Origin: Candidatus Latescibacterota bacterium
GTDB lineage: Bacteria > Latescibacterota > UBA2968 > GCA-2709665
Reading direction: 5' to 3'
DNA: 64,000 nt
Assembly (NCBI GenBank): GCA_965205485.1
Contig: OZ242180.1
Location: 96,001 to 160,000, forward strand
A program made the position numbers and the translations under genes. The notes under the pieces are model-generated. The model was not told the origin of the DNA. It saw only the letters and a program-made list of their open reading frames with translations, and ran no database searches. The first letter of the stretch is position 1; each line of letters begins with the position of its first letter. This document shows positions 7,905 to 24,415 of this stretch, one piece after another.

Positions 7905-7980
7905 GGGGCTGTAGCTCAGCTGGGAGAGCGCATGACTGGCAGTCATGAGGTCGTCGGTTCGATCCCGATCAGCTCCACCA
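7905..7980 (+). tRNA. tRNA-Ala (anticodon GGC)
   Basis: 76 nt GGGGCTGTAGCTCAG...GTTCGATCCC...AGCTCCACCA; anticodon arm CATGA-CTGGCAG-TCATG; encoded CCA. Confidence 0.97.
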
Positions 7981-8033: not shown

Positions 8034-8585
8034 CGACCTCTCCCGGCGCTGCGCGCCACCCTCTCCCGCGGGAGAGGGTCTGGCTGCTGGATAGGTGTCG
8101 CGAAATGCGACAGTTGGTTCGCCTGTGGAAAGAGGGGATCGACTGATGGGCGCGTAGTGTGATACGAGAAGCCAGAGCTTGTGAGGGTGGAGCGGACATT
8201 CCTGTCTGCTCACGTTTGTCGAACCGGTAGGCAAACCTCGGTTTTCGTCAGATCCAGGTGGCCAGGCAACACTTCGGCTAATTCAGGAACCGAACAATAG
8301 AGACATCTGACAATCATTGCGCCTGGCCACGTGGCCCTCCCACGTCACTAACCCATTGAGGGCGACCTCTCCCGGCGCAGAGCGCCACCCTCTCCCACAG
8401 GGAGAGGGTCTGGCTGCGCGACAGGTGTCGCGAAATGCGACAGAAAGTTCGCCGGTGGAGACATGGATCGACTGGTCCCGCGCGCAGCGCATACGAGAAG
8501 CCAGAGCTTGCCAGGGTGGAGCGGACATTCCTGTCTGCTCACGTATGTCGAACCGGGAGGTAAGCCTCGGTTTTCATCAGATCCA
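8034..8585. repeat. Diverged ~223 bp direct repeat (8034-8256 and 8363-8585) built of REP-like palindromes
   Basis: Both copies contain CCCTCTCCC..GGGAGAGGG, TGTCGCGAAATGCGACA and GGTGGAGCGGACATTCCTGTCTGCTC. Confidence 0.85.
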
Positions 8586-8906: not shown

Positions 8907-10500
8907 ATGGCGAAAGGCAGACGTAAAAAATCGTCGACGCAGGCCAAATCGGGCGACGGAAACGAAGCTTCTGATTTTCGGTCCGAACTCTGGGCGATGG
9001 CCGACGCGTTGCGGGGCAGCATGGACGCCGCGGAGTACAAGCACGTCGTGCTGGGCCTGATCTTCCTCAAGTACATTTCAGACGCGTTCGAGGAAGCCCA
9101 CTACCAAACTGGTGGAGGAAGTCGCTGAAGGCGCGGACCCGGAGGATCCCGACGAGTACCGCGCCCAGAGCATCTTCTGGGTCCCTCCCGAGGCGCGATG
9201 GCCAAAACTCCAGTCGCAGGCCCACCAACCCACCATCGGACGTACTCTAGACGATGCGATGACCGCCATTGAGCAGGATAATCCTGCGCTCAAGGATGTC
9301 TTGCCAAAGGACTACGCGCGCCCAAACCTGGATAAGACGCGATTGGGGCAGGTTGTCGACATGGTCAGCAACATTCAGGTAGGCGGCGAGGAGGCGCGCG
9401 CCACGGACGTTCTGGGCAGCGTCTATGAGTACTTCCTGGAGCAGTTCGCGATCGCCGAGGGCCGAAAGGGCGGCGAGTTCTACACCCCGCGCAGCGTCGT
9501 TCGCCTACTCGTTGAAATGCTGGAACCATATGAGGGAAGGGTCTACGACCCGTGCTGCGGATCATCGGGTATGTTCGTCCAGTCTATGGAATTCATTGAC
9601 GCTCACACCAGCGGAAATGGCAATGGCGGCAACGCCAGAGAAAAAATCTCCATATATGGCCAGGAATCCAACTACACAACGTGGCGAATGGCAAGGATGA
9701 ATCTGGCGATACGCGGCATCGAGGGTCAGATCGCACACGGGGACAGCTTTCACAACGACAGTCATCCCGATCTGAAGGCCGACTACATCCTCGCCAATCC
9801 TCCATTCAATGTTTCCGACTGGGGCGGCGAACGTCTGCGCGAGGACAAACGATGGGAGTTCGGCGTTCCGCCCGTCGGCAATGCCAACTTCGCCTGGGTG
9901 CAGCACTTTCTGCACCACCTGTCACCTCGCGGCACTGCCGGGTTCGTACTCGCCAACGGCTCCATGTCGTCTAACCAGTCAAACGAAGGGGAAATCCGAA
10001 AGAATATCATCGAGGCCAACCTGGTGGACTGCATCGTCGCCCTGCCCGGTCAGCTATTCCGGTCCACGCAGATACCTGCGTGTTTATGGTTTTTGTCTCG
10101 TGGCCGAGCCAATGGGGAACATAGGGACCATGAGGACGAGACGCTTTTCATCGACGCCAGGAAAATGGGCCACCTGATCGACCGTACGCGAAGGAACCTA
10201 TCGCCGGAGGACATCGCCAGGGTCGCGAACACCTATCACGCCTGGCGCGGCGGCGAGGGATCCGGGGAGTACGTGGACGTTTCGGGGTTCTGCAAGAGCG
10301 CATCGCTGGAAGAGATTCGCAAACACGGCCACGTCCTCACACCGGGCCGCTACGTCGGCGCGGAACCGCAACCCGATGATGGAGAGCCGTTCGAGGAAAA
10401 GATGGCGCGCCTTACAGCTCGGTGGCGGGAACAACGAACGGAAGCGTGGCGACTGGATGCGGCGATTGAGGAAAATTTGAAACATCTGGGATTTGGATGA
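8907..10500 (+). CDS. hsdM: Type I R-M methyltransferase subunit (one +1 frameshift at ~9102)
   Basis: [32 protein letters not shown] in the 8907 frame; continues in the 9112 frame with [16 protein letters not shown] and NPPF. Confidence 0.93.
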
Positions 10501-10714
10501 AAGGACCGGTGAAAGCCCGGTTCTTGTCAGTAAAAATAGTCCAACATCTCCGAATCCGGCAGTGGCAGGAATATCACGAGGCCGAAGCGACACTCAGTGA
10601 GTTGCGTCATTCAATTTCACAATATATAACTGATAGCTCCCTGTAAATGACAAACTGCGAGACATTGGGGAAGTGTGAGAAGAAAGAGTCGTTCGTCGAG
10701 GAAGGGAATTAGGC

Positions 10715-12037
10715 GTGACAGAACAGGAAGAAGTGACGTTGGGCAAGGTTGCAGACGTTGTGATGGGCCAATCTCCTCCTGGCTCGACATACAACGAGAC
10801 CGGAAGAGGTCTGCCGTTTTTTCAGGGCGTCAAAGACTTCAATTACCGCCACCCGACTCGTCGTGTATTCTGCTCGGAACCATCCAGAGTCGCATATCCT
10901 GGGGACATACTTTTTAGTGTGCGAGCACCAATCGGACGGGTAAATGTAGCAGATAAGAAGTGCGCCACTGGTCGTGGGCTTGCGATAATCAGACCCCATT
11001 CGCAGTCAGACGGTCGCTACCTCGAATTCGTCCTCAGGCAATTGGAGCCCAAATGGGACGCACTTGAAACGAGTGGTTCAGTCTTTGGCAATGCTACAAA
11101 GCGAGATCTAGAGTCTCTGGTTATGCGATGGCCCATGAACGAAGGTGAACGCGTCGCAATTGGCCATATCCTAGGTACATTGGACGACAAGATCGAGTTG
11201 AACCGGCGGATGAACGAGACGCTGGAGGAAATGGCGCGGGCTCTGTTCAAGTCGTGGTTTGTGGACTTCGACCCCGTCCGTGCAAAGGCAGCGCTTACCT
11301 CTACCCCTTCGGATGGCAGCGATTGGACAGTGGATCGAGCGCGGGCGTATCTCGACAGCATTGACTGTAGCGTGGCCGACCTGTTCCCCGAACGGTTTGT
11401 CGACTCGGAACTCTGCGAGATACCGGAGGGTTGGGAGGTCAAAGCAGTTGGCGATGTTGTGGAAGTGGTAGGGGGAACAACGCCTAGCACAAAGGTAACG
11501 GGGTACTGGGACAGTGGAACGCATTGTTGGGCTACGCCCAAAGACCTCTCAGACCTGTCTTCGCCCGTGTTAATGAACACCGAACGAAAAATCACGGATG
11601 CTGGCCTAGCAAAAATAGGTTCGGGACTATTACCGAAGGGTACATTGCTGTTGTCGTCCAGGGCGCCTATTGGATACGCTGCAATAAACGAAATGCCGGT
11701 AGCAATCAATCAGGGATTTATAGGTATTCCACCGGGCGATATTGTATCAAATCTCTTTTTGTTAAACTGGTGCAGAGCGTGTCACGAGGTGATTATCAAC
11801 CATGCAAATGGCTCAACATTTCTCGAAATCAGCAAACGGGACTTCCGACTAATCCGAATAGTTATGCCGGATGAAGCAGTTATGTTGTCGTTTGACGAGG
11901 CCGTCCGCCCACTTTACGATTACATCGTCTCGAATGAACGCGAGTCTCGTATACTCACCGCTAAGCGGGATGCGTTACTGCCGAGACTGATGTCAGGGAG
12001 GTTGACCGCATTAGAAGGGGCTAACAGTGGCAGATAA
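10715..12037 (+). CDS. hsdS: Type I R-M specificity subunit
   Basis: Two TRDs; conserved ILGTLDDKIELNRRMNETLEEMARALFKSWFVDF and RDALLPRLMSG segments. Confidence 0.93.
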   Translation: MTEQEEVTLGKVADVVMGQSPPGSTYNETGRGLPFFQGVKDFNYRHPTRRVFCSEPSRVAYPGDILFSVRAPIGRVNVADKKCATGRGLAIIRPHSQSDGRYLEFVLRQLEPKWDALETSGSVFGNATKRDLESLVMRWPMNEGERVAIGHILGTLDDKIELNRRMNETLEEMARALFKSWFVDFDPVRAKAALTSTPSDGSDWTVDRARAYLDSIDCSVADLFPERFVDSELCEIPEGWEVKAVGDVVEVVGGTTPSTKVTGYWDSGTHCWATPKDLSDLSSPVLMNTERKITDAGLAKIGSGLLPKGTLLLSSRAPIGYAAINEMPVAINQGFIGIPPGDIVSNLFLLNWCRACHEVIINHANGSTFLEISKRDFRLIRIVMPDEAVMLSFDEAVRPLYDYIVSNERESRILTAKRDALLPRLMSGRLTALEGANSGR

Positions 12038-13541
12038 CATAGTTTATTTGTATCCAGACACAAATTTGTTCATCCAATGTCGTCCCTTAGATCAACTCGA
12101 CTGGAGTGACTGGTCGGAGTTCGACCAGGTTAACCTGATTGTCTGCCGTCCAGTTCAACGGGAAATCGATTCACAGAAAAACCGCGGAAATGACAGAGCC
12201 GCCAAGCGCGCACGGAAGACCTACAGCATTTTCCGGAGAATTATCGAAAGTAACGACGAATTCTTGCAAGTATCTGATGCGAATCCAAGAGTAAGGCTTT
12301 TCTTGGAGGCGCCGAGTTTGCCAAGCTCCGACCTCAAGGATGTCCTTGATTACAACAAACCCGACGACGAAATAGTGGGGTGTTTGGATCGATTTTGCAA
12401 GGAGAAACAGGACGAGGATGCCCGGCTACTCACACATGACACTGGACCGATGATGACAGCAAAGACACACGGCCTAAAGGTCGCCGCTATCGGGGATAAA
12501 TGGCTTCTTCCACCAGAAAACAACACGAAAGAAAAAGAGAATGCCCGCCTTAAACAACGCATAACTGAGCTTGAGCAAAGAGAACCTTCATTTCGAGTTA
12601 ACTTCCTAGACGGCGATGGATTTATAGTTGACTCTCTATCCATAGTACATCCTGTCTACGATCCACTTTCGGACGATGAAATATCGTGCTTCATGAAGTC
12701 AATAAAAGGCCTGTTTCCATTGGCTTCAGAATTCGAGTCCGGTGAACGGGCTGAGACAGTCGGCGATAAACTTCAAGACCAGCTCTTGCGCATGACTGCG
12801 GTATACAGACCGGCTACGGATGAGGCTATCTCCAAGTATACCGACCAAGATTATCCCGCTTGGATTGACGAGTGCGAAGAGGCGTTTTCTCTCTTACACA
12901 GGTCGTTACAGAGTGAAATTGGCCAGCCGTCATTTGCGATTTCCATTCTCAATGATGGTGCACGTCCGGGCAAGGACGCGTTGGTTAAAATCACAGCAAG
13001 CGGAAACTTTAAGATCAGGCCGCCTCGTACAAACGACGACGAAACGGGGAGAAATAAACGAAGCAAGATATCTCTACCCCACGTACCACAGGCACCACAA
13101 GGAAAGTGGATTCGCGCAGGACTCGCGCTGAATCCGTTCGAAGATTCACTCAAAGAGATGGTAAATCTCGCAAGTATAAGCACTAATCCGTACGACTTTC
13201 GCAGCAATCTTCAAACTCCAGTTTCACTAGACTATCGGGATTTTCGGCGAGATTCGAACGCTTTCTATTACAAGCCGAAGCGTCCAAAAAAGGCACAAGA
13301 GTCATTTAGTCTTGAGTGCGAACAATGGCGACATGGGATTGGCGAGAAACGCTTCGATGGTCGAATCTTGTGCGATCAACATGTAGAATTCATTCAGGGT
13401 GAACTATCGTGCGAGGTCCATGCCGAAAACCTATCCAATCCAGTGCGAATGACAATTCCCGTAGAAATCACCATTAAAAGGGTGAGTTCGGCAGACCGTG
13501 CTCGGGCACTAATACAGGATTTGGCAGACTCAGCCCAGTGA
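12027..13541 (+). CDS. PIN-domain protein with coiled coil and uncharacterised C-terminal region
   Basis: YLYPDTN, VQREIDSQK, PDDEIV and LLTHDTG acidic PIN pattern; overlaps the hsdS end by 11 nt. Confidence 0.75.
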   Translation: MADNIVYLYPDTNLFIQCRPLDQLDWSDWSEFDQVNLIVCRPVQREIDSQKNRGNDRAAKRARKTYSIFRRIIESNDEFLQVSDANPRVRLFLEAPSLPSSDLKDVLDYNKPDDEIVGCLDRFCKEKQDEDARLLTHDTGPMMTAKTHGLKVAAIGDKWLLPPENNTKEKENARLKQRITELEQREPSFRVNFLDGDGFIVDSLSIVHPVYDPLSDDEISCFMKSIKGLFPLASEFESGERAETVGDKLQDQLLRMTAVYRPATDEAISKYTDQDYPAWIDECEEAFSLLHRSLQSEIGQPSFAISILNDGARPGKDALVKITASGNFKIRPPRTNDDETGRNKRSKISLPHVPQAPQGKWIRAGLALNPFEDSLKEMVNLASISTNPYDFRSNLQTPVSLDYRDFRRDSNAFYYKPKRPKKAQESFSLECEQWRHGIGEKRFDGRILCDQHVEFIQGELSCEVHAENLSNPVRMTIPVEITIKRVSSADRARALIQDLADSAQ

Positions 13542-13588: not shown

Positions 13589-14946
13589 ATGCCACGAAAA
13601 AACACGATTAATCGTCCCATTCCCATTCAAAAAACCACCATTTGCCTACTCTTGGAGACGAGGTCCGTGAAGGCTCCTGCTGAAGTAATCCTTCAACTAT
13701 TGCCAAGGCCGCGAGTGATCATTGAGTTCAAGTTAGAGCCAATTGATTACGAAGCCTCGAACGAGATGCGGTCGAAACAGTGTATGCGGATCCATTTAGA
13801 CGGAGGCCCGAGTATAGATGTATTGGTCGGAGATAGGTGGTTCATTACCAGCTAGAAAATATCCAATTTTCTTGTCCCCATTGAGCAGCCGGTAACCGTT
13901 GTTAACGAAAACACTCCAATTAACAGGTGTAAGTTTGCCTTAATCAACTTTCCAAGTATCTGGGGAAAGCAGGATATCACTGAGAAACTCGGTGATAGGA
14001 ACTATGATGTGACACAACATTTAATCTTGCCAGCCGTCCCTTGGTCGATTGAGATTACGGCCGTAGATTCGTTGATGGTTATCGACCACAAGATGAAACT
14101 GGACGGCGGGTCGGCTATCACTCATTTGGGGTCCATCCGGCAGCTGAATGGCCAAGACTTCCGCGTAAGGGAACTCGAACTCCTGGTGGAGGGACTACAT
14201 CTGTTCCTCTCCTTTGCGCGCGGCTCGTATTGCGGCTTGGCGTTCCTCTCAGCACGAAATTCAAATGACAAACGAGTCTGGCAGCAATGGGGTACTCGTA
14301 GAGTGGATCCGTGGCATCGAGAGTTACCGACTTGGGTCTGCGGTCTCCAAAGTGAGATGTTAACCCCGGTTTTTGAGGGTTTTTGGAGGCGCTTTACTGA
14401 CCGAAGATGGAATAGAGCAATCGCAAATGTGATCCACTGGTATTTGAGAAGTAATGCAAGCGATTTGCCCGAAGTTGGTATAGTACTCACCCAATCTGCA
14501 CTTGAACGATTGTGCTTTGAGACGATTGGCCGTAAATCTAACACGGAAAATTCAGGAGACTGGATAGCCAAGGCTCTGGAAAACTTGGGAATCGAACATC
14601 AAATTCCCCAAGATTGCGGAAATTTGGTTAAACTCGGCAGACAGTTTAATTGGACCCACGGGCCACACGCCATAGTCGATTTACGTAATGACTTGATCCA
14701 CCCTGAAGATCGACATCCCCGCTTGTCACAATCCGTCTATAATGAGGCCTGGGACTTGGGACTGCGCTACATCGCTGGCCAACGGCGCCCCTGATATCGG
14801 CAACCGATCACAGGCCGCCTTGAACGCAGTTGATGTTGCTAAATCTCTTTGGACATACAGGGCAGCATATGAACCGATTGATGCGTGAACAAGGGTATGG
14901 TGCGGCGGTGGAAGTTGTACCTTGGGTTGTGGCGGGAGAGCCATAA
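13589..14946 (+). pseudogene. Disrupted HEPN-domain (ApeA-like) gene
   Basis: ORFs 13589-13855 and 14009-14794 share a frame, split by one TAG at 13853; RNDLIH (Rx4H) motif; a probable C-terminus QLMLLNLFGHTGQHMNRL...VEVVPW resumes at 14827 after a 53 bp insert. Confidence 0.65.
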
Positions 14947-15058
14947 GCCAAATCACCTTTGCCAATGCACTCTCCAGATTCCTGGCGTGTGAGAATCTGC
15001 GAGGCGATTCTCGTACAGGTGCCGGCTACAGCTGGATGACATTATCGGAGGATGCACA

Positions 15059-16024
15059 ATGAACGTCTGGGTTATCCGAGCGGACTTCGGGGTTTTTACA
15101 CCCCATTTTCTGGCGGGTGGATACGTCGCACTTGGAGGCATACCGAACCAAGATCTGTCAGCGATAAAGAACCGTGACGAGCTGTATCCGATCTATCGAG
15201 AGACGCATCCGGACGACAAAAGCAATATCGTCGTCGGTCAGCAAGTGGGTCAGTTTGCGCGGTTTCTGCTGGAAATCAAACCGGGAGACTATGTAATCAC
15301 GCCGCCCAAAGACACGGAATGGCTGCATTATGGCAAGGTTGCAGTCGACCCGTACTACTTTTTTGAAGAGAACGACGGATGCCCATATCAACACCGGCGC
15401 AAAATCGAGTGGGCCGAGCGACGCGTGAAGCGATCGGAATTCTCAATTCCATTTCAGAATACGATTCGCTCTTCGTTGACTGTGTTTTACGTGTCACATG
15501 GACAGGAGTTTCTCACAAGAATTGGAGTACTCAATGGCGAATCCAAGCCGGGGCCTGGATCAGAAGATCCGTATCGGGTGGTCCTCAATCAGATTCTCGA
15601 ACTTGATGCCGGCGAATTCGAGATCCTGGTTGGACACCTTCTGACGGCCCTCGGATTTGAAGGTTCCGAGGTCGTTGGCAAACCGGGCGACGGTGGCGTA
15701 GATGTCACCGGCGAGTTAAACGCATCGAACCTGGCTACGATAAGTGTTTTCGTTCAAGCGAAGCGATACAGCTTGCAATACAAAGTCTCGGCGAAAATTG
15801 TAAAGCAACTTCGCCAAGCTATTCCGTTTGGTGGTCAAGGTGCATTTATCACCACTGCGGATTATCAGGCCAATGCTAGAGAAGTGGCGGTTGAGGAAGG
15901 CTTTCCGCGCATAGGCCTGATTAACGGCCATCAGTTGGTCGACCTACTTGTCGAGCATTGGGGTTCCATTCCTGAGGAATTCCGAGACAGGCTGGGACTC
16001 AGACCAGGTTTAGTTCGTGTATGA
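15059..16024 (+). CDS. Mrr-like type IV restriction endonuclease
   Basis: C-terminal Mrr catalytic pattern FEILVGHLL...GDGGVDV...VQAKRY...INGHQLVDLL; GGAGG RBS. Confidence 0.85.
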   Translation: MNVWVIRADFGVFTPHFLAGGYVALGGIPNQDLSAIKNRDELYPIYRETHPDDKSNIVVGQQVGQFARFLLEIKPGDYVITPPKDTEWLHYGKVAVDPYYFFEENDGCPYQHRRKIEWAERRVKRSEFSIPFQNTIRSSLTVFYVSHGQEFLTRIGVLNGESKPGPGSEDPYRVVLNQILELDAGEFEILVGHLLTALGFEGSEVVGKPGDGGVDVTGELNASNLATISVFVQAKRYSLQYKVSAKIVKQLRQAIPFGGQGAFITTADYQANAREVAVEEGFPRIGLINGHQLVDLLVEHWGSIPEEFRDRLGLRPGLVRV

Positions 16025-16188
16025 ACGACAACTCCAAGGGGGCGAATCTCCACTCTCCGTTTATCCAATGCGATATCTCGTTTACGAGATTCTCTCTTGC
16101 CGAAGTTGTTGTCCAGGTATATGCAGGTGAGGGTTCGCTGCAATCGGACGCAGAATAGACAACCGACATTTTATCGGAGGTTAGAGTT

Positions 16189-16578
16189 ATGGCCACCAAG
16201 CGCGCATTTATCAGCTTTGACTTCGACCATGATGAAGACCTGCGTGTCCTACTCGTTGGTCAGGCGAAGAATCCAGATTCACCTTTTCATATACTCGACT
16301 GGTCCGTAAAGGAACCCTTTACTGGAAATTGGAAAGATAAGGTCCGTCAACGCATTCGCAGAACCGACCTCACAATTGTGATCTGCGGCAGATACACCCA
16401 TACAGCAACTGGTGTCGCAACGGAGCTATCAATCACACGAGACGAGGGTAATCCGTATTTCTTGCTGAGCGGTCGTACTAGTACGACGGGGAGAAAACCG
16501 ACGTCTGCCTTCAGTTCAGACAAGATATACAATTGGACGTGGGACAACCTCAAGCTGCTGATCGCAGGGCGGAGATAA
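16189..16578 (+). CDS. TIR-like protein (DUF1863/ThsB-like), copy 1
   Basis: RAFISFDFDHD, IVICG and GVATE (putative catalytic Glu79); GGAGG RBS. Confidence 0.85.
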   Translation: MATKRAFISFDFDHDEDLRVLLVGQAKNPDSPFHILDWSVKEPFTGNWKDKVRQRIRRTDLTIVICGRYTHTATGVATELSITRDEGNPYFLLSGRTSTTGRKPTSAFSSDKIYNWTWDNLKLLIAGRR

Positions 16579-16581
16579 GAT

Positions 16582-17106
16582 ATGGATAAAGAGCAGCGAA
16601 ATCGACTATTCAACTTCACAAAGGAAACCTACGAGGGTTCCTTCAAGCCAGACCTGCTTGAGCAGTACAAGCTGTACGTGCAGTCTGTCGACAACGTCAG
16701 TGCCCGACGGATCGGGTCTAGCAGGTATCTCTTGACCGTAAACGCCGCTCTAATTGCCTTGTACGGCTTCCAATCGGCGAATACAGGTCAAATATTCTTG
16801 ATGGTTCTTGTTGCCATTGCCGGGATCGTTGTCTCGCTGCTTTCTTACAATATCATCAAATCACATAGCGATCTGAACGCGGTTAAATTTAAAGTGATCG
16901 ACGAACTCGAGCAGCAATTGCCCGCAGCTCCCAATGATTACGAGTGGCAGTTGCCGAAGGAAGGAGACAGCAAGGTGTACCGTTCTGTGTCGCAAATCGA
17001 ATTTAGGATTCCGACTGTGTTTCCATTTTTGATCCTTGTCGCCCGATCCGTGTGGATAAGCGTCTTTCGAAGAAAATCTTGCACACGGGTAGCGTATATG
17101 TTCTGA
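16582..17106 (+). CDS. Small membrane protein (2-3 TM), TIR partner copy 1
   Basis: [19 protein letters not shown] helix, two hydrophobic helices, LNAVKFKVIDELE, YEW; starts 3 nt after the TIR stop. Confidence 0.75.
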   Translation: MDKEQRNRLFNFTKETYEGSFKPDLLEQYKLYVQSVDNVSARRIGSSRYLLTVNAALIALYGFQSANTGQIFLMVLVAIAGIVVSLLSYNIIKSHSDLNAVKFKVIDELEQQLPAAPNDYEWQLPKEGDSKVYRSVSQIEFRIPTVFPFLILVARSVWISVFRRKSCTRVAYMF

Positions 17107-17227
17107 ATTCTACTGATTGCAACACTCGACGAAGCCATCAATCGATACGGCGTCGAAATACATTGTCGTCAGAATCAATAATTCGGTGCGTCCAAAGCGC
17201 GAAAGTTACGTGCGGCCTTTGAAAAGG

Positions 17228-17410
17228 ATACCGTTTACCGAAGCCGATGTTGGGCAGGCAACCCAAAAAACGGGTTTCGGATTTCGCTTAGCAGGTCTTG
17301 CACGGTTCGAACTCCGCACCTGAAATGCCGAATGCCGAGGGAGACAAGTGCGGGCAAGTCGTGCCTAACCGCAGGCTTCGCGATGCAAGCGCCGAGATCA
17401 AACCTACCAC
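17228..17410 (+). pseudogene. Decayed second copy of the hsdR 5' end
   Basis: Reads PFTEADVGQA...*QVLHGSNSAPEMPNAEGDKCGQVVPNRRLRDASAE, which aligns with hsd[37 protein letters not shown] at 18335-18470. Confidence 0.75.
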
Positions 17411-17459
17411 CTGCCTGAAATGGCAGAACCAAACACCTACCGTCGAATAGGAGGTACCG

Positions 17460-17849
17460 ATGGCGACGAGGAGAGCGTTTATCAGTTTCGACTACGACCA
17501 CGACAATGACCTTCGGGGCGACTTAGTCGCCCAAGCCTCGAATTCCGACTCGCCTTTCAGTATCACAGACTTTTCGGTGAAGGCGCCGATAGACGAGAAA
17601 TGGAAAAGAGAGGTTCGCGAGCTAATTCGAAGCGCCGACCTTGTGATTGTTATCTGTGGAGAACACACCCACGATGCGGCGGGTGTGGCAGCCGAAGTGA
17701 CTATTGCTCGGGAGGAGGGCAAGCGATATTTCCTGCTGAAGGGACGCAGAGAAAAGACTTGTACAAAACCCAGAAACACTCGCACGGACGACGAAATGCA
17801 CAAGTGGACCTGGTGGAATCTGAAGAATCTGATTGAAGGCGCGAGATAG
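17460..17849 (+). CDS. TIR-like protein (DUF1863/ThsB-like), copy 2
   Basis: 129 aa, ungapped alignment with copy 1 (about 75/129 identical by hand count); GVAAE Glu79 retained; AGGAGG RBS. Confidence 0.85.
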   Translation: MATRRAFISFDYDHDNDLRGDLVAQASNSDSPFSITDFSVKAPIDEKWKREVRELIRSADLVIVICGEHTHDAAGVAAEVTIAREEGKRYFLLKGRREKTCTKPRNTRTDDEMHKWTWWNLKNLIEGAR

Positions 17850-17853
17850 ACCG

Positions 17854-18342
17854 ATGCCCGAACAGCCAGTTAAGCGCTTGATCCATCATACAAATGAAAC
17901 TTACAGTGGCTCTTATTGTACGGATCTATTGGAACAGTACAAGCTCTACGTGCACTCTGCCGAAAACGTGAGTGCACGTCGAGTCGCTTCGAGCCGGTAC
18001 CTACTGACCCTAAACTCCGCCATCATTGCACTCTACGGACTTCAGTTTGCGGGTTCGGAGGGAAGCATTTTGGCACTGCTTATTCCGATCATGGGTATAC
18101 CGGTATCGATAATGTGGTATATGATTATCAAGTCCCACACGGATCTGAACCGCGTGAAGTTTCGTGTGATTCACGAATTCGAGGAGCATCTCCCGGCAGC
18201 GATGTACAAGTATGAGTGGCGATTAGCTGATGAAGGAAAAGGCAAGACTTATCGGGCAGTAACGACCATTGAACAATGGATCCCCTTCCTTTTCGGTGCA
18301 TTGCATGTGGCTCTGGCGACAATGCTTGTCCTTAGCCCTTGA
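17854..18342 (+). CDS. Small membrane protein (2-3 TM), TIR partner copy 2
   Basis: [35 protein letters not shown]; paralogue of 16582-17106; its 3' end overlaps hsdR-like sequence. Confidence 0.75.
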
Positions 18343-21300
18343 GTGGCTTTCGGGTCTCGGTTGGCAGGTTATCCATGGTCCGGACATCGCGCCGGAGATG
18401 CCGACTGCCGAGCGAGACGACTACGGGCAGGTCGTGCTCGACCAGCAGGCTTCGTGACGCCCTCGCCGAATTGAATCCATCCCTTCCCCCATCCGCCTTG
18501 GACGATGCCTACCGAAAGCTGACCCGTCCCGAAGGTTCCACCCTCGAAGCCCGAAATCGCACGTTTCACCGGATGCTCGTGGACGGCGTGGAAGTCGAGT
18601 ATCGAGATACGAAGATGGACGCGTGCGCGGCGATCAGGTTCGCGTCATCGATTTCGACAATCCCGATACAAAACGACTGGTTGGCGGTCAATCAGTTCAC
18701 GGTCACGGAGAACAAGAACAACCGCAGGCCGGACGTCGTGTTGTTTGTCAACGGTCTTCCCCTCGGCTTGATCGAACTGAAGAATCCAGCGGACGAGGAC
18801 GCCACGATCTGGACGGCGTGGAACCAACTCCAGACGTATAAGGCCGAACTGCCTTCGCTGTTTTCGATGAACGAAGTGCTCATGGTGTCGGACGGGACGG
18901 AAGCGCGCATCGGAACGCTGACATCGGGAAAGGAGTGGTTCAAGCCCTGGCGCACGGTTGCCGGGGAGGAACCGGCCGACCGGCTCTTGACCGAACTCCA
19001 GGTGATGCTCGAAGGCGTCTTTAATAGAGGTCGTTTCCTGGCACTTGTACGCGACTTCGTTGTTTTCGATGACGACGGCAGCGGCGCGCTGGAGAAGAAG
19101 ATGGCCGGCTACCATCAGTTTCACGCTGTCAGGGCCGCCGTCGATGAAACGCTTCGCGCAACGGAACTTCAGCTAGCGACGCCAAAAGCAGCCGAAGCAG
19201 GGCCTCTCTATACCGGTCAGACGAAGCCGGGCGGAGATCCCGGCGACCGGCGCGTGGGAGTCGTGTGGCACACCCAGGGGTCGGGCAAGAGCCTTACAAT
19301 GGCCTTCTACACGGGGGCGATCATCCGTGAGCAGGCGATGCAGAACCCGACGATCGTGGTTCTTACGGACCGAAACGATCTGGACGACCAGCTTTACGGT
19401 ACGTTCTCCCGCTGCCAAGACCTGTTGCGGCAGCCGCCGACACAGGCGGAGAGCCGGGCCGACTTGAGAAACAAGCTGTCGGTGAACGCCGGGGGTGTGG
19501 TCTTCACGACCATCCAGAAGTTCTTCCCGGAAGAGAAGGGCGATACCCACCCTCAGTTATCCGACAGGCGCAACATCGTGGTCATCGCGGACGAGGCCCA
19601 CCGGAGCCAGTACGACTTCATAGACGGGTTCGCCGCTCACATGCGAGACGCGCTGCCCAATGCCTCTTTCGTTGGATTCACGGGAACGCCGATAGAACTC
19701 CGCGACGCCAACACACGGGCCGTGTTTGGCGACTACATCAGCATCTACGACATCCAGCGCGCCGTTCAGGACGGGGCCACGGTGCCGATCTATTACGAGA
19801 GCCGCCTGGCCAAGCTGGCCCTGGACGAACGCGAAAAGCCGAAGATCGATCCGGAATTCGAGGAAGCCACAGAGGGCGAGGAGGTTGAGCGCCGGGAGAA
19901 GCTGAAGACGAAAGTGGGCGCAACTGGAGGCAGTGGTCGGCGCGGAAAACCGCGTCCGGCAGATTGCCGAGGATATTGTGGACCACTATGAGCAGCGGCT
20001 GGAGGTCCTGGATGGCAAGGCGATGTTGGTCTGCATGAGCCGGCGTATCTGCATCGACCTCTACCGCGAATTGGTCCAACTGCGGCCCGACTGGCACGAT
20101 GACGCTGACGAAAAGGGAGCCATCAAGGTGGTGATGACCGGCTCCGCTTCCGACCCGTCGATTGGCAGCCTCACATACGAAACAAGCCGCGCCGGGAAGC
20201 CCTGGCAAAACGCTTCAGAGATGCTGACGATCCCCTGCAGGTCGTGCTGGTGAGGGACATGTGGCTGACGGGGTTCGACGCGCCCAGCCTGCATACGATG
20301 TACGTGGACAAGCCGATGCGGGGCCACGGTCTGATGCAGGCCATCGCCCGGGTGAACCGGGTGTTCAAGGACAAGCCCGGCGGGCTGGTGGTGGACTACC
20401 TCGGATTGTCGCAGGATTTGCGACAAGCGCTGGCTACGTACACCGAGAGCGGCGGCACTGGCAGTACGGCTGTGGACAAGAAGGAAGCCGTGGCGGTCAT
20501 GCTGGAGAAGTACGAGGTGTGTAGCGGGCTGTTTCATGGTTTCGACCGGACGGCATGGACAAGGGGTACTCCGCAGGAGCGATTGAATCTGCTGCCCGCT
20601 GCACAGGAACACATCCTCGCCCAGGAAGACGGCAAAGAGCGCTGCCTGAACGCGGTGCGAGCGCTGTCTCAGGCCTTCGCACTCGCCGTGCCACACGACG
20701 AAACGACGCGCATCAGGGACGACGTGGCGTTCTTTCAGGCGGTGGCGGCCGCCATATCGAAGCGCTCCGCATCTGAGAAGCGGACCGAGGAAGAGTTGGA
20801 CCACGCTGTGCGGCAGATCGTATCCAGCGCGGTCGCCTCAGAGGGCGTGATGGACATCTTTGCCGCCGCTGGACTGGACAAGCCGGATATTTCGGTATTA
20901 TCGGACGATTTTCTCGCCGAGGTCCGGGGTATGGAGCACCGCAACCTGGCCGTGGAATTGCTGCAGAAACTGCTAAAGGGCGAAGTCTCCATCCGTCGGC
21001 GCAAGAACGTCGTTCAAGCCCGGTCCTTTGCCGAGATGCTGGAGCAGACCCTGCGGCGTTATCAGAACCGTGCGATAGAGGCGGCGCAGGTGATCGAGGA
21101 ACTGATTGAACTGGCGAAAGAAATGCGGGAGGCAAACGAGCGGGGCGAACGGCTGGGGCTGTCGGAGGACGAGTTGGCCTTCTACGACGCCCTTGAGACG
21201 AACGACAGCGCGGTGAAGGTTCTCGGCGACGAGACCCTGCGCGACATCGCGCGACAACTCGTCGAGACGGTCCGCGGAAACGTGACCATCGACTGGACCC

Positions 21301-21446
21301 TGCGGGAGAACGTCCGCGCAAACCTCCGCCGCCTTGTCAGGCGCATCCTTCGCAAGCACGGCTACCCGCCAGATAAGCAGGAAAAGGCGACGCAGACAGT
21401 AATCGAGCAGGCGGAAGCGCTTTCGGCGGGTTGGGCGGTGGCGTGA
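18335..21446 (+). pseudogene. hsdR: Type I restriction subunit HsdR: no visible start codon and ~5 frameshifts (real or sequencing error)
   Basis: [41 protein letters not shown] and MWLTGFDAP spread across frames; shifts near 18446, 18608, 18670, 19912 and 20155. Confidence 0.9.
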
Positions 21447-23651: not shown

Positions 23652-24029
23652 ATGGCGCCGACACTGAAGGAACTGATCGACCACGCTCGCTGGCGAAAGG
23701 CGGTTACCTATCGGGATACGTGGCCCCACGAATACGTGATGTCCGAAAGTGACCGGCAGGACGAACTCCTCAGCGCAATCTGCGAGCGGTTCCGCGCCGG
23801 CGAGGGTGTGGCTTGTCGCTTCTTCAGCAGTGACAATTCGTACCTATTTATCGGCAATTACAAATACTGGCTGATGACTCACTGGGACGCTATAGAGCCC
23901 GGTGTCAACTACGTGATTAACCGGGCCAGGCTGTACCGCGACCGCAGGGACTTCGTTATCCAGCATGGGGATACGGGGAAGCCGGATGACTATCCTGTTA
24001 CGCCGGCGAACGACGGTCACGACGATTAG
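23652..24029 (+). CDS. Hypothetical protein (WPHEY motif)
   Basis: WRKAVTYRDTWPHEY...YKYWLM...INRA; aromatic-rich 125 aa ORF. Confidence 0.6.
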   Translation: MAPTLKELIDHARWRKAVTYRDTWPHEYVMSESDRQDELLSAICERFRAGEGVACRFFSSDNSYLFIGNYKYWLMTHWDAIEPGVNYVINRARLYRDRRDFVIQHGDTGKPDDYPVTPANDGHDD

Positions 24030-24030
24030 A

Positions 24031-24415
24031 GCAGTTCCGTCGGGTTTAACGGATGCGATTGAGGAAAACTCGCCGCTATTTCCAACCGCCACACCACACG
24101 GGCGGTTCCCGAACCGCCCCTACAACAATCGGCGATGGCCGTTGTTGAAATCGTCGTCGAGGAACACGCGCAATTGGTCCGCCGATACAACCGCTACGTC
24201 CATGACCGCAGATCCGTCGGGTTCAAGGGATACGATTGAGGAAAACTCGCCGCTGTTTTCAACCGCCACACCAAACGGGCGGTTCGCGAACCGCCCCTAC
24301 AACAATCGGCGATGGCCGTTGTTGAAATCGTCGTTGAGGAACACGCGCAATTGGTCCGCCCATACAACCGCTACATCCATAACCGCAGATCCGTCAGGCT
24401 CAAGGGATACGATTA
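24031..24415. repeat. 177 bp tandem repeat (about 2.2 units) containing a REP and the RAYT 5' end
   Basis: Units start at 24031, 24208 and 24385; each full unit carries GGGCGGTTC(C/G)CGAACCGCCCCTAC (24100-24123, 24277-24300). Confidence 0.88.

Follow-up and report, generated by a model that had tools for sequence, protein, structure and literature searches.

The window analysed here, a stretch of 64,000 nucleotides from contig OZ242180.1 of a Candidatus Latescibacterota bacterium, harbours two successive two-gene cassettes within a type I restriction-modification (R-M) gene set, all genes given with coordinates in the following being encoded on the forward strand. The first cassette comprises the gene of a ThsB-type TIR protein of 129 residues (TIR1, 16189..16578) and that of a predicted three-helix membrane protein of 174 residues (copy 1, 16582..17106), the start codon of which follows the TIR1 stop codon after 3 nt. 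In the second cassette, where this spacing amounts to 4 nt, a further 129-residue TIR protein (TIR2, 17460..17849) precedes a membrane protein of 162 residues counted from the ATG (copy 2, 17854..18342). Between the cassettes lies the decayed remnant of an hsdR 5'-end (17272..17404), whose start, judged by eye, is perhaps to be placed near 17229. The four cassette genes are flanked on one side by hsdM and hsdS (8907..12037; Pfam N6_Mtase, HsdM_N and Methylase_S), a PIN-domain gene and the gene of an Mrr-like nuclease (15059..16024; PF04471; PADLOC candidate PDC-S02 with 467 bits), and on the other side by hsdR (18335..21446; Pfam HSDR_N, SWI2_SNF2 and T1RH-like_C). The latter is spread over several frames and lacks its first ~12 codons, while the tblastn frames reveal a break in hsdM near 9101-9109. 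The GC content amounts to 0.47-0.52 at 11-18 kb compared to 0.60-0.66 across much of the window, and a tRNA-Ala gene detected by ARAGORN directly 5' of this lower-GC R-M island (7905..7980) represents a possible site of its integration. A scan of the locus for promoters and terminators yielded no excess above shuffled sequences.

The original prediction had described two TIR genes of about 58% identity with a common Glu79, each followed within 3-4 nt by one of two paralogous membrane protein genes, and had placed both pairs within a type I R-M gene set devoid of ThsA. This description is borne out. TIR1 and TIR2 can be aligned without gaps and agree at 75 of 129 positions (58%), and both have Glu79 as catalytic residue; an alignment of the membrane proteins over 161 residues shows 87 identities, and they contain the helix motif EQYKLYV.S..NVSARR; and the Pfam assignments confirm the position of the cassettes between hsdM/hsdS and hsdR. 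Scans of 15 ORFs against Pfam and of 10 against PADLOC revealed no ThsA, and none of the 15 island ORFs contains a SIR2-SLOG or TM-Macro domain, the neighbours of the TIR genes encoding proteins of Pfam family PF24838 instead. The absence of ThsA, which had been considered notable, is unremarkable since Thoeris types IV-XI are reported to use other effectors, those of types V and VII being membrane proteins that lack a distinct domain for ligand binding (Yirmiya et al., bioRxiv 10.64898/2025.12.03.692087). Throughout the 5.13-Mb genome TIR1 and TIR2 are the sole matches to PF08937 and the two membrane proteins the sole matches to PF24838. No type IV-like caspase adjoins the cassettes, two ThsE-like queries retrieved none from the genome by tblastn, and blastn of two TIR genes against E. 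coli genomes gave no match.

Both TIR proteins exceed the cut-off of the Pfam family ThsB_TIR (PF08937; 21.2 bits) with 34.3 bits for TIR1 and 38.5 bits for TIR2. The AlphaFold2 model of TIR1 (pLDDT 79) finds its best PDB match in 8FZ9, a 'Bacillus cereus TIR protein' (TM 0.71, E 1.5e-7), while a PDB sequence search with TIR2 gave no significant match. Type IV Thoeris is described as a combination of a ThsB TIR with the caspase-like effector ThsE, signalling through N7-cADPR; PsTIR, a verified type IV protein, uses E79 as catalytic residue and produces N7-cADPR, and PsTIR and EcTIR each activate PsCaspase (Rousset et al., bioRxiv 10.1101/2024.10.24.620036). The PsTIR sequence given in the supplement of PMC13243611 is colinear with residues 15-86 of TIR1 in the same numbering, 27 of 72 residues being identical by eye, and the TIR of plasmid locus L173, by eye a close stand-in for PsTIR, is 39% identical to TIR1. 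The nearest plasmid TIRs are likewise 129 residues long, show 56-65% identity and are encoded directly 5' of caspase genes. Closer still is the caspase-linked TIR of locus L028, which shares 75-76% of its residues with TIR1 and whose caspase, by eye, resembles PsCaspase. The colinearity with PsTIR including E79, seen by eye, and the interleaving with caspase-linked TIRs assign these proteins, by sequence, to the PsTIR/EcTIR (type IV) lineage instead of a generic ThsB group, and thereby suggest one particular signal.

The interleaving becomes apparent from a TIR tree calculated by a quick method from 88 rows and 129 columns. With 42 of 85 branches open this tree is weakly resolved, which counts against the signal proposed below. 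The caspase label, carried by 22 rows, changes 14 times along the tree compared to a mean of 19.7 after shuffling; hence, some clustering of caspase-linked TIRs remains. Their monophyly is rejected by the AU test (p=0.016; 22 versus 53 rows, leaving out the long-branched L010 and 12 rows having neither partner). All 88 rows retain Glu79, and position 3, close to the N-terminus, is the single position which separated the caspase-linked from the 8xMP-linked group. TIR2 groups with the TIR of locus L070 (SH-aLRT 96), apart from TIR1, and departs from the clade consensus at G24, E42, R55, A107 and Y114.

The membrane proteins, in which the original prediction had seen no recognisable ligand-binding domain, both belong to the catalogued Pfam family PF24838 (8xMP), whose cut-off of 30 bits is exceeded by copy 1 with 108 and by copy 2 with 130 bits. 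This is their sole Pfam match at E<=0.05, with neither PF10028 nor SLATT among the matches, and NCBIfam and PADLOC contribute nothing except one weak, below-cut-off NCBIfam match. The 8xMP profile matches 2,934 clusters at 50% identity, and in two samplings of 401 genomes each, 10 and 12 genomes exceed the Pfam cut-off for PF24838. For copy 2, the AlphaFold2 model (pLDDT 88) consists of three long helices, of which helices 2 and 3 coincide with clear hydrophobic peaks and helix 1 with a weaker one. Invariant or near-invariant residues of 8xMP include R42, R43, N99, K102, E110, E121, W122 and E140 (copy 2 numbering for R42, R43 and K102). A PDB sequence search with copy 2 returned 0 matches and a fold search with the 8xMP model generic helical bundles only, with no Foldseek match at E<=0.001 and a best structural Z of 10.1, which is below the bar used for bundles. 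Prediction of an 8xMP complex, calculated for four copies only, resulted in a median of 0.40 compared to a mark of 0.42. Copy 1 departs from the consensus at 2 of the 28 strongly conserved columns, a number usual for this alignment; in addition, it has an atypical C-terminus and 8 residues which are rare in the alignment, W88S and A36V at conserved columns among them. Its departures are within the normal range, and a classification of copy 1 as a pseudogene is unsupported. The C-terminus of copy 2 is ~8 residues short compared to its nearest relatives (170 residues, up to 84% identical).

A survey of homologues for linkage to TIR genes, named beforehand as the test capable of refuting the prediction, revealed this linkage from both sides (74/80 and 50/80), which supports the view of a two-gene unit consisting of a TIR and a putative membrane effector. 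Among the best 80 of 345 metagenome 8xMP loci, some on near-identical contigs, 74 possess a TIR upstream, 72 of them directly, one at the start of its contig (L127) and one as a partial gene (L126); of the remaining loci, four end before any upstream DNA and two have no upstream TIR. Seen from the TIR side, at least 517 genome loci match, of which the best 80 were analysed: 8xMP is present in 50 and a type IV-like caspase in 22, in 18 of the latter directly downstream of the TIR. L084 has both, and six loci have none of the partners considered. The 8xMP-carrying loci span, according to their record titles, many bacterial phyla as well as archaea. Mostly, TIR and 8xMP genes are spaced by -4 to +6 nt, two or more TIRs occur in 12 of the 50 loci (11 detected with the clade profile, plus L084), and in some operons a TIR is located downstream of 8xMP (L200, L202 and L203). 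R-M genes are found no more than 5 kb away from the cassette in 22 of 50 8xMP loci versus 2 of 18 caspase loci, and an HsdR match is located ~1.5 kb downstream or nearer in 12 of the best 80 loci. On viral contigs a TIR accompanies 8xMP in five of six matches, and in the plasmid regions examined (10 of 34 matching records) an annotated adjacent TIR is present in seven and absent in three; in annotated phages 8xMP was found in one record, a Haematospirillum element. The distribution is patchy, with 10 of 41 relatives exceeding the PF24838 cut-off. The TIR-8xMP pair is real, conserved and widespread.

The PF24838 family at large is less tightly bound to TIR genes. In the genome samples 15 of 32 loci have a TIR within 1.5 kb, which counts against the proposed gating by a TIR product, compared to 11 of 14 loci in the close subfamily scoring above 100 bits on our own 8xMP profile. 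The TIR-linked 8xMPs largely form one subfamily. A third type of partner, a SLATT/DUF4231-like protein of ~370 residues, occurs in three of the best 80 TIR loci and hence within the same TIR clade, which speaks against gating by N7-cADPR: verified SLATT type VII is reported to use canonical cADPR (Yirmiya et al.), so that the signal is perhaps not determined by the lineage of the TIR. Also against N7-cADPR are two reports of that preprint, namely that one TIR cluster spans types I, IV and V and that none of its 15 verified TIRs activated the type IV caspase.

Caspase and 8xMP are found not merely in related operons. At three loci both are encoded within one operon, namely L172, with the order caspase-TIR-8xMP-TIR on Clostridium plasmids, L084 and L148, and at L171 a caspase and an 8xMP cassette are 2 kb apart. 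Moreover, 8xMP is paired with PsTIR-like TIRs (13 ORFs of this kind among the metagenome loci) and, by eye, is also found beside EcTIR-like TIRs on Synechococcus, haloarchaeal and Clostridium plasmids. Yirmiya et al. have used the reasoning that effectors sharing an operon argue for a shared signal.

With respect to the doubled cassette, the hsdR remnant at 17272..17404 matches 18345-18478 at 99 of 133 nt (score 125 versus a maximum of 33 in 300 shuffles) and, by tblastn, HsdR residues 23-60 with 60% identity (E 5e-8). In relatives TIR-8xMP leads straight into hsdR, and a tblastn search with an intact relative aligns to the window's hsdR (18335..21446) from residue 13 onwards. At the junction of copy 2 and hsdR ~60 nt are apparently missing, corresponding to the last ~8 codons of 8xMP and the first ~12 of hsdR. 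Two strong 8xMP genes in one locus were found in 0 of 160 related loci, the stretch examined reaching at most 5 kb to each side. A tandem duplication in place does not account for the arrangement, as the two TIRs fail to group as sisters and a separate hsdR start stands behind each cassette. With the hsdR remnant between the cassettes and the TIRs not being sisters, a second TIR-8xMP-hsdR block probably arrived behind the first, and the two copies are most likely separate, successive acquisitions in front of hsdR. By analogy with systems possessing several ThsB proteins, it is plausible that TIR1 and TIR2, as the original prediction had proposed, would respond to different triggers.

With both hsdR and hsdM showing frame breaks in this assembly, the R-M island looks like one in decay, and the broken R-M genes together with the shortened copy 2 imply that these particular copies may be non-functional. 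If so, the system would be genuine elsewhere while the window itself would contain relics with at most one working cassette. The missing hsdR start, the inter-cassette remnant, the 8 rare residues of copy 1 and the lack of a second locus with two strong 8xMP genes agree with this view. Yet, all four reading frames are open, Glu79 is retained and the departures of copy 1 are ordinary. Furthermore, among the matches listed, contigs of one sample, possibly the source of the window itself, agree over 14828-17710 and show no alternative letters at copy 1 but diverge exactly at 18335, so that the junction of copy 2 and hsdR may be the variant of one strain or a feature of the assembly. We therefore regard this explanation as quite improbable.

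Compared to known systems, the pair shows the general features of Thoeris, namely a TIR of ThsB-type fold with Glu79, a conserved adjoining putative effector and a defence context. It resembles type IV in that a short, stand-alone TIR from this lineage is encoded directly 5' of a single effector gene, and TIRs up to 76% identical to TIR1 head caspase operons. It differs from type IV in its putative effector, a three-helix 8xMP membrane protein, with no caspase adjacent or elsewhere in the genome. Type V, which is reported to unite ThsB with ThsF/DUF2270 (PF10028) and to use 3'cADPR (Yirmiya et al.), likewise combines a TIR with a three-helix membrane effector lacking a separate ligand-binding domain, ThsF having been modelled as a ring, and may serve as the best functional analogue. 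In contrast to type V, the effector belongs to PF24838 instead of PF10028, of which no locus was found in the 301 genomes used for the family comparison. With types VII (SLATT, cADPR) and IX (ThsJ) the pair shares the association of a TIR with a membrane effector, but it differs from type VII as 8xMP has no SLATT match in Pfam and hhalign against three SLATT-like TIR partners gives a probability of 1%. From types I and II it is set apart by the lack of a SIR2-SLOG or TM-Macro effector beside the TIR (15 island ORFs scanned). By the sequence of its effector, the pair is thus assigned to none of types I, II, IV, V and VII.

Rip1 is described as a small single-protein pore-forming anti-phage defence which acts alone and is triggered by phage ring proteins (review PMC13434031). 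As Rip1, 8xMP is a candidate small membrane-disrupting anti-phage protein; unlike Rip1, it has a TIR partner, and PDB sequence and fold searches reveal no link in sequence or fold. An identity of 8xMP with Rip1 finds no support in these searches, the similar name being no evidence of kinship.

Yirmiya et al. list 29 putative Thoeris types, of which V-XI are verified and several contain membrane effectors. Given how common it is, TIR-8xMP is probably one of these putative configurations, although 8xMP is not mentioned in the main text of that preprint, figures and tables aside. No literature naming 8xMP or PF24838 together with TIR was found in a search which lay outside most subscription papers.

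Taken together, each cassette may be regarded as a two-gene abortive-infection unit of Thoeris type and type IV lineage, in which 8xMP would take the slot held in type IV by the caspase ThsE. As inferred from type IV, phage infection would switch on the small TIR, which would then convert NAD+ to a cyclic ADP-ribose signal. As judged from the TIR lineage and the shared operons, N7-cADPR is most likely this signal. It would bind to 8xMP, probably at conserved basic residues between the subunits; R42, R43 and K102 (copy 2) form the likely ligand site by analogy with ThsF and ThsH, the models of which are reported to exhibit basic pockets between subunits (Yirmiya et al.). Thereupon, a ring of 8xMP would breach the inner membrane and phage replication would stop. 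That the pair uses Thoeris-type signalling with any ADPR isomer appears, on sequence evidence, fairly probable, and it most likely couples type IV chemistry to an output at the membrane. For the narrower claim, in which the TIR responds to phage by producing N7-cADPR and this signal opens a membrane oligomer of 8xMP, we would assume an even chance.

The most serious alternative retains this architecture but assumes another chemistry, the TIR producing 3'cADPR, cADPR or a new ADPR isomer to gate 8xMP; it includes the case that 8xMP is ThsJ of type IX, which uses 3'cADPR. Such a signal would agree with the TIR cluster of Yirmiya et al. which spans types I, IV and V, with the SLATT-like partner at 3 of 80 loci and with the five departures of TIR2 from the clade consensus. 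As to type IX, its effector domain is never named in the text of that preprint. Against another isomer, three TIR sub-lineages are common to caspase and 8xMP operons, and caspase and 8xMP occur within one operon at three loci. Against type IX in particular, neither set of plasmid records with an 8xMP match (34 and 23) includes a Bacillus, whereas the verified system originates from B. cereus; this argument is weak, as the search by name covered plasmids only. A homologue search with a Clostridium 8xMP gave six matches, none of them named Bacillus. On balance, we consider this alternative rather unlikely.

Less probable still is a reversed wiring, with 8xMP acting as a membrane sensor or scaffold which drives NAD+ depletion by the TIR, or a direct contact of both proteins without a diffusible signal. 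Yirmiya et al. caution that the TIR of an unverified configuration may itself act as the NAD+-depleting effector, and the tight spacing of the genes would suit such a contact, as would a database protein (P0059) containing TIR and 8xMP in one frame, although its sequence looks like a frameshift read-through. The TIRs, however, appear interchangeable with caspase-linked ones, which are reported to signal by a small molecule and to deplete little NAD+; more than one TIR is present in 12 of 50 8xMP loci, as in multi-sensor Thoeris operons, and at three loci the TIR lies downstream of 8xMP. Finally, the pair might serve a role outside defence, e.g. in envelope or stress signalling. The database name of PF24838, 'RipA family octameric membrane protein', presumably refers to Francisella RipA, which is described as a membrane protein required for intracellular growth. 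The patchy distribution, the carriage on plasmids and viral contigs, the R-M island and the exchange with a verified defence caspase render this reading very improbable.

Provided that the preferred reading, gating of 8xMP by a TIR-derived N7-cADPR, is correct, 8xMP would, as we tentatively and with somewhat less than even confidence suggest, be the first N7-cADPR-gated membrane-pore effector and, among the nearest relatives of this TIR, a commoner output than the caspase (50 versus 22 of 80 loci), and type IV would become a two-effector signalling family with members in bacteria, haloarchaea and Nitrososphaerota. Testing this claim would be inexpensive, given that a PsCaspase peptide reporter and a specific sponge, TadIV-1, exist. 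The finding still adds one more TIR-effector pairing to the ~30 already predicted and may itself be on record as a candidate. To our knowledge, the type IV caspase is the sole receptor known for N7-cADPR. Another receptor, unrelated to the caspase, would reveal how this signal is read, and a large uncharacterised family would gain its first molecular function, that of a nucleotide-sensing pore made of three helices alone.

Besides the two cassettes of a TIR and the membrane protein 8xMP (Pfam PF24838), the type I R-M operon harbours a gene for a PIN_4 protein of 504 aa (window positions 12027-13541) as well as an unannotated, possibly split gene (13589-14794), both of which likely represent further defence cargo. 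A relative of the PIN_4 protein (48%), encoded in the related locus L020, also adjoins a TIR-8xMP pair. At the end of the ORF 14009-14794 lies a stretch of 53 nt (14775-14827) which is absent from the contigs of sequencing runs X1-X3 (one sample, possibly the source of the window itself), as these skip over it. Comparison with these runs reveals this short stretch also within another contig context.

Between both cassettes a decayed remnant of the hsdR 5' part is present (17272-17404). The hsdR gene itself (18335, 18442, ~18669 and ~19990-20240) lacks its start and exhibits several frame changes, and hsdM contains a single frame break (9101-9109). These defects may reflect either real decay or assembly error. 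Direct repeats with palindromic parts, spaced by about 330 nt, follow the tRNA-Ala gene (8034-8585), and two 177-nt repeats (24010-24363) precede an IS200-like transposase.

Directly 3' of TIRs belonging to the same clade, three related loci (L053:3160-4278, L071:5431-6534 and L079:5407-6504) encode a SLATT/DUF4231-like membrane protein of roughly 370 aa, possibly a third effector of this TIR lineage. Elsewhere, single operons encode both a caspase and 8xMP along with two or three distinct TIRs (L172, NZ_CP148663.1 26176-28489; L084:3952-6770; L148:4588-7308). Three Latescibacterota-titled loci (L035, L037 and L048) carry the same TIR, and the sequence examined around it includes no gene for 8xMP or a caspase; in L035 this sequence reaches only 96 nt upstream.

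8xMP is present on many haloarchaeal plasmids, as judged from plasmid records matching it; in the one whose gene neighbourhood was examined (L178, NZ_LN831304.1) the gene order is TIR-TIR-8xMP. In four further loci (L179, NZ_CP050092.1; L219; L223; L221) it adjoins an NB-ARC protein, a deaminase, a prokaryotic STING-domain protein or a long TIR_2 protein. Hence, 8xMP may serve other defence modules as well.
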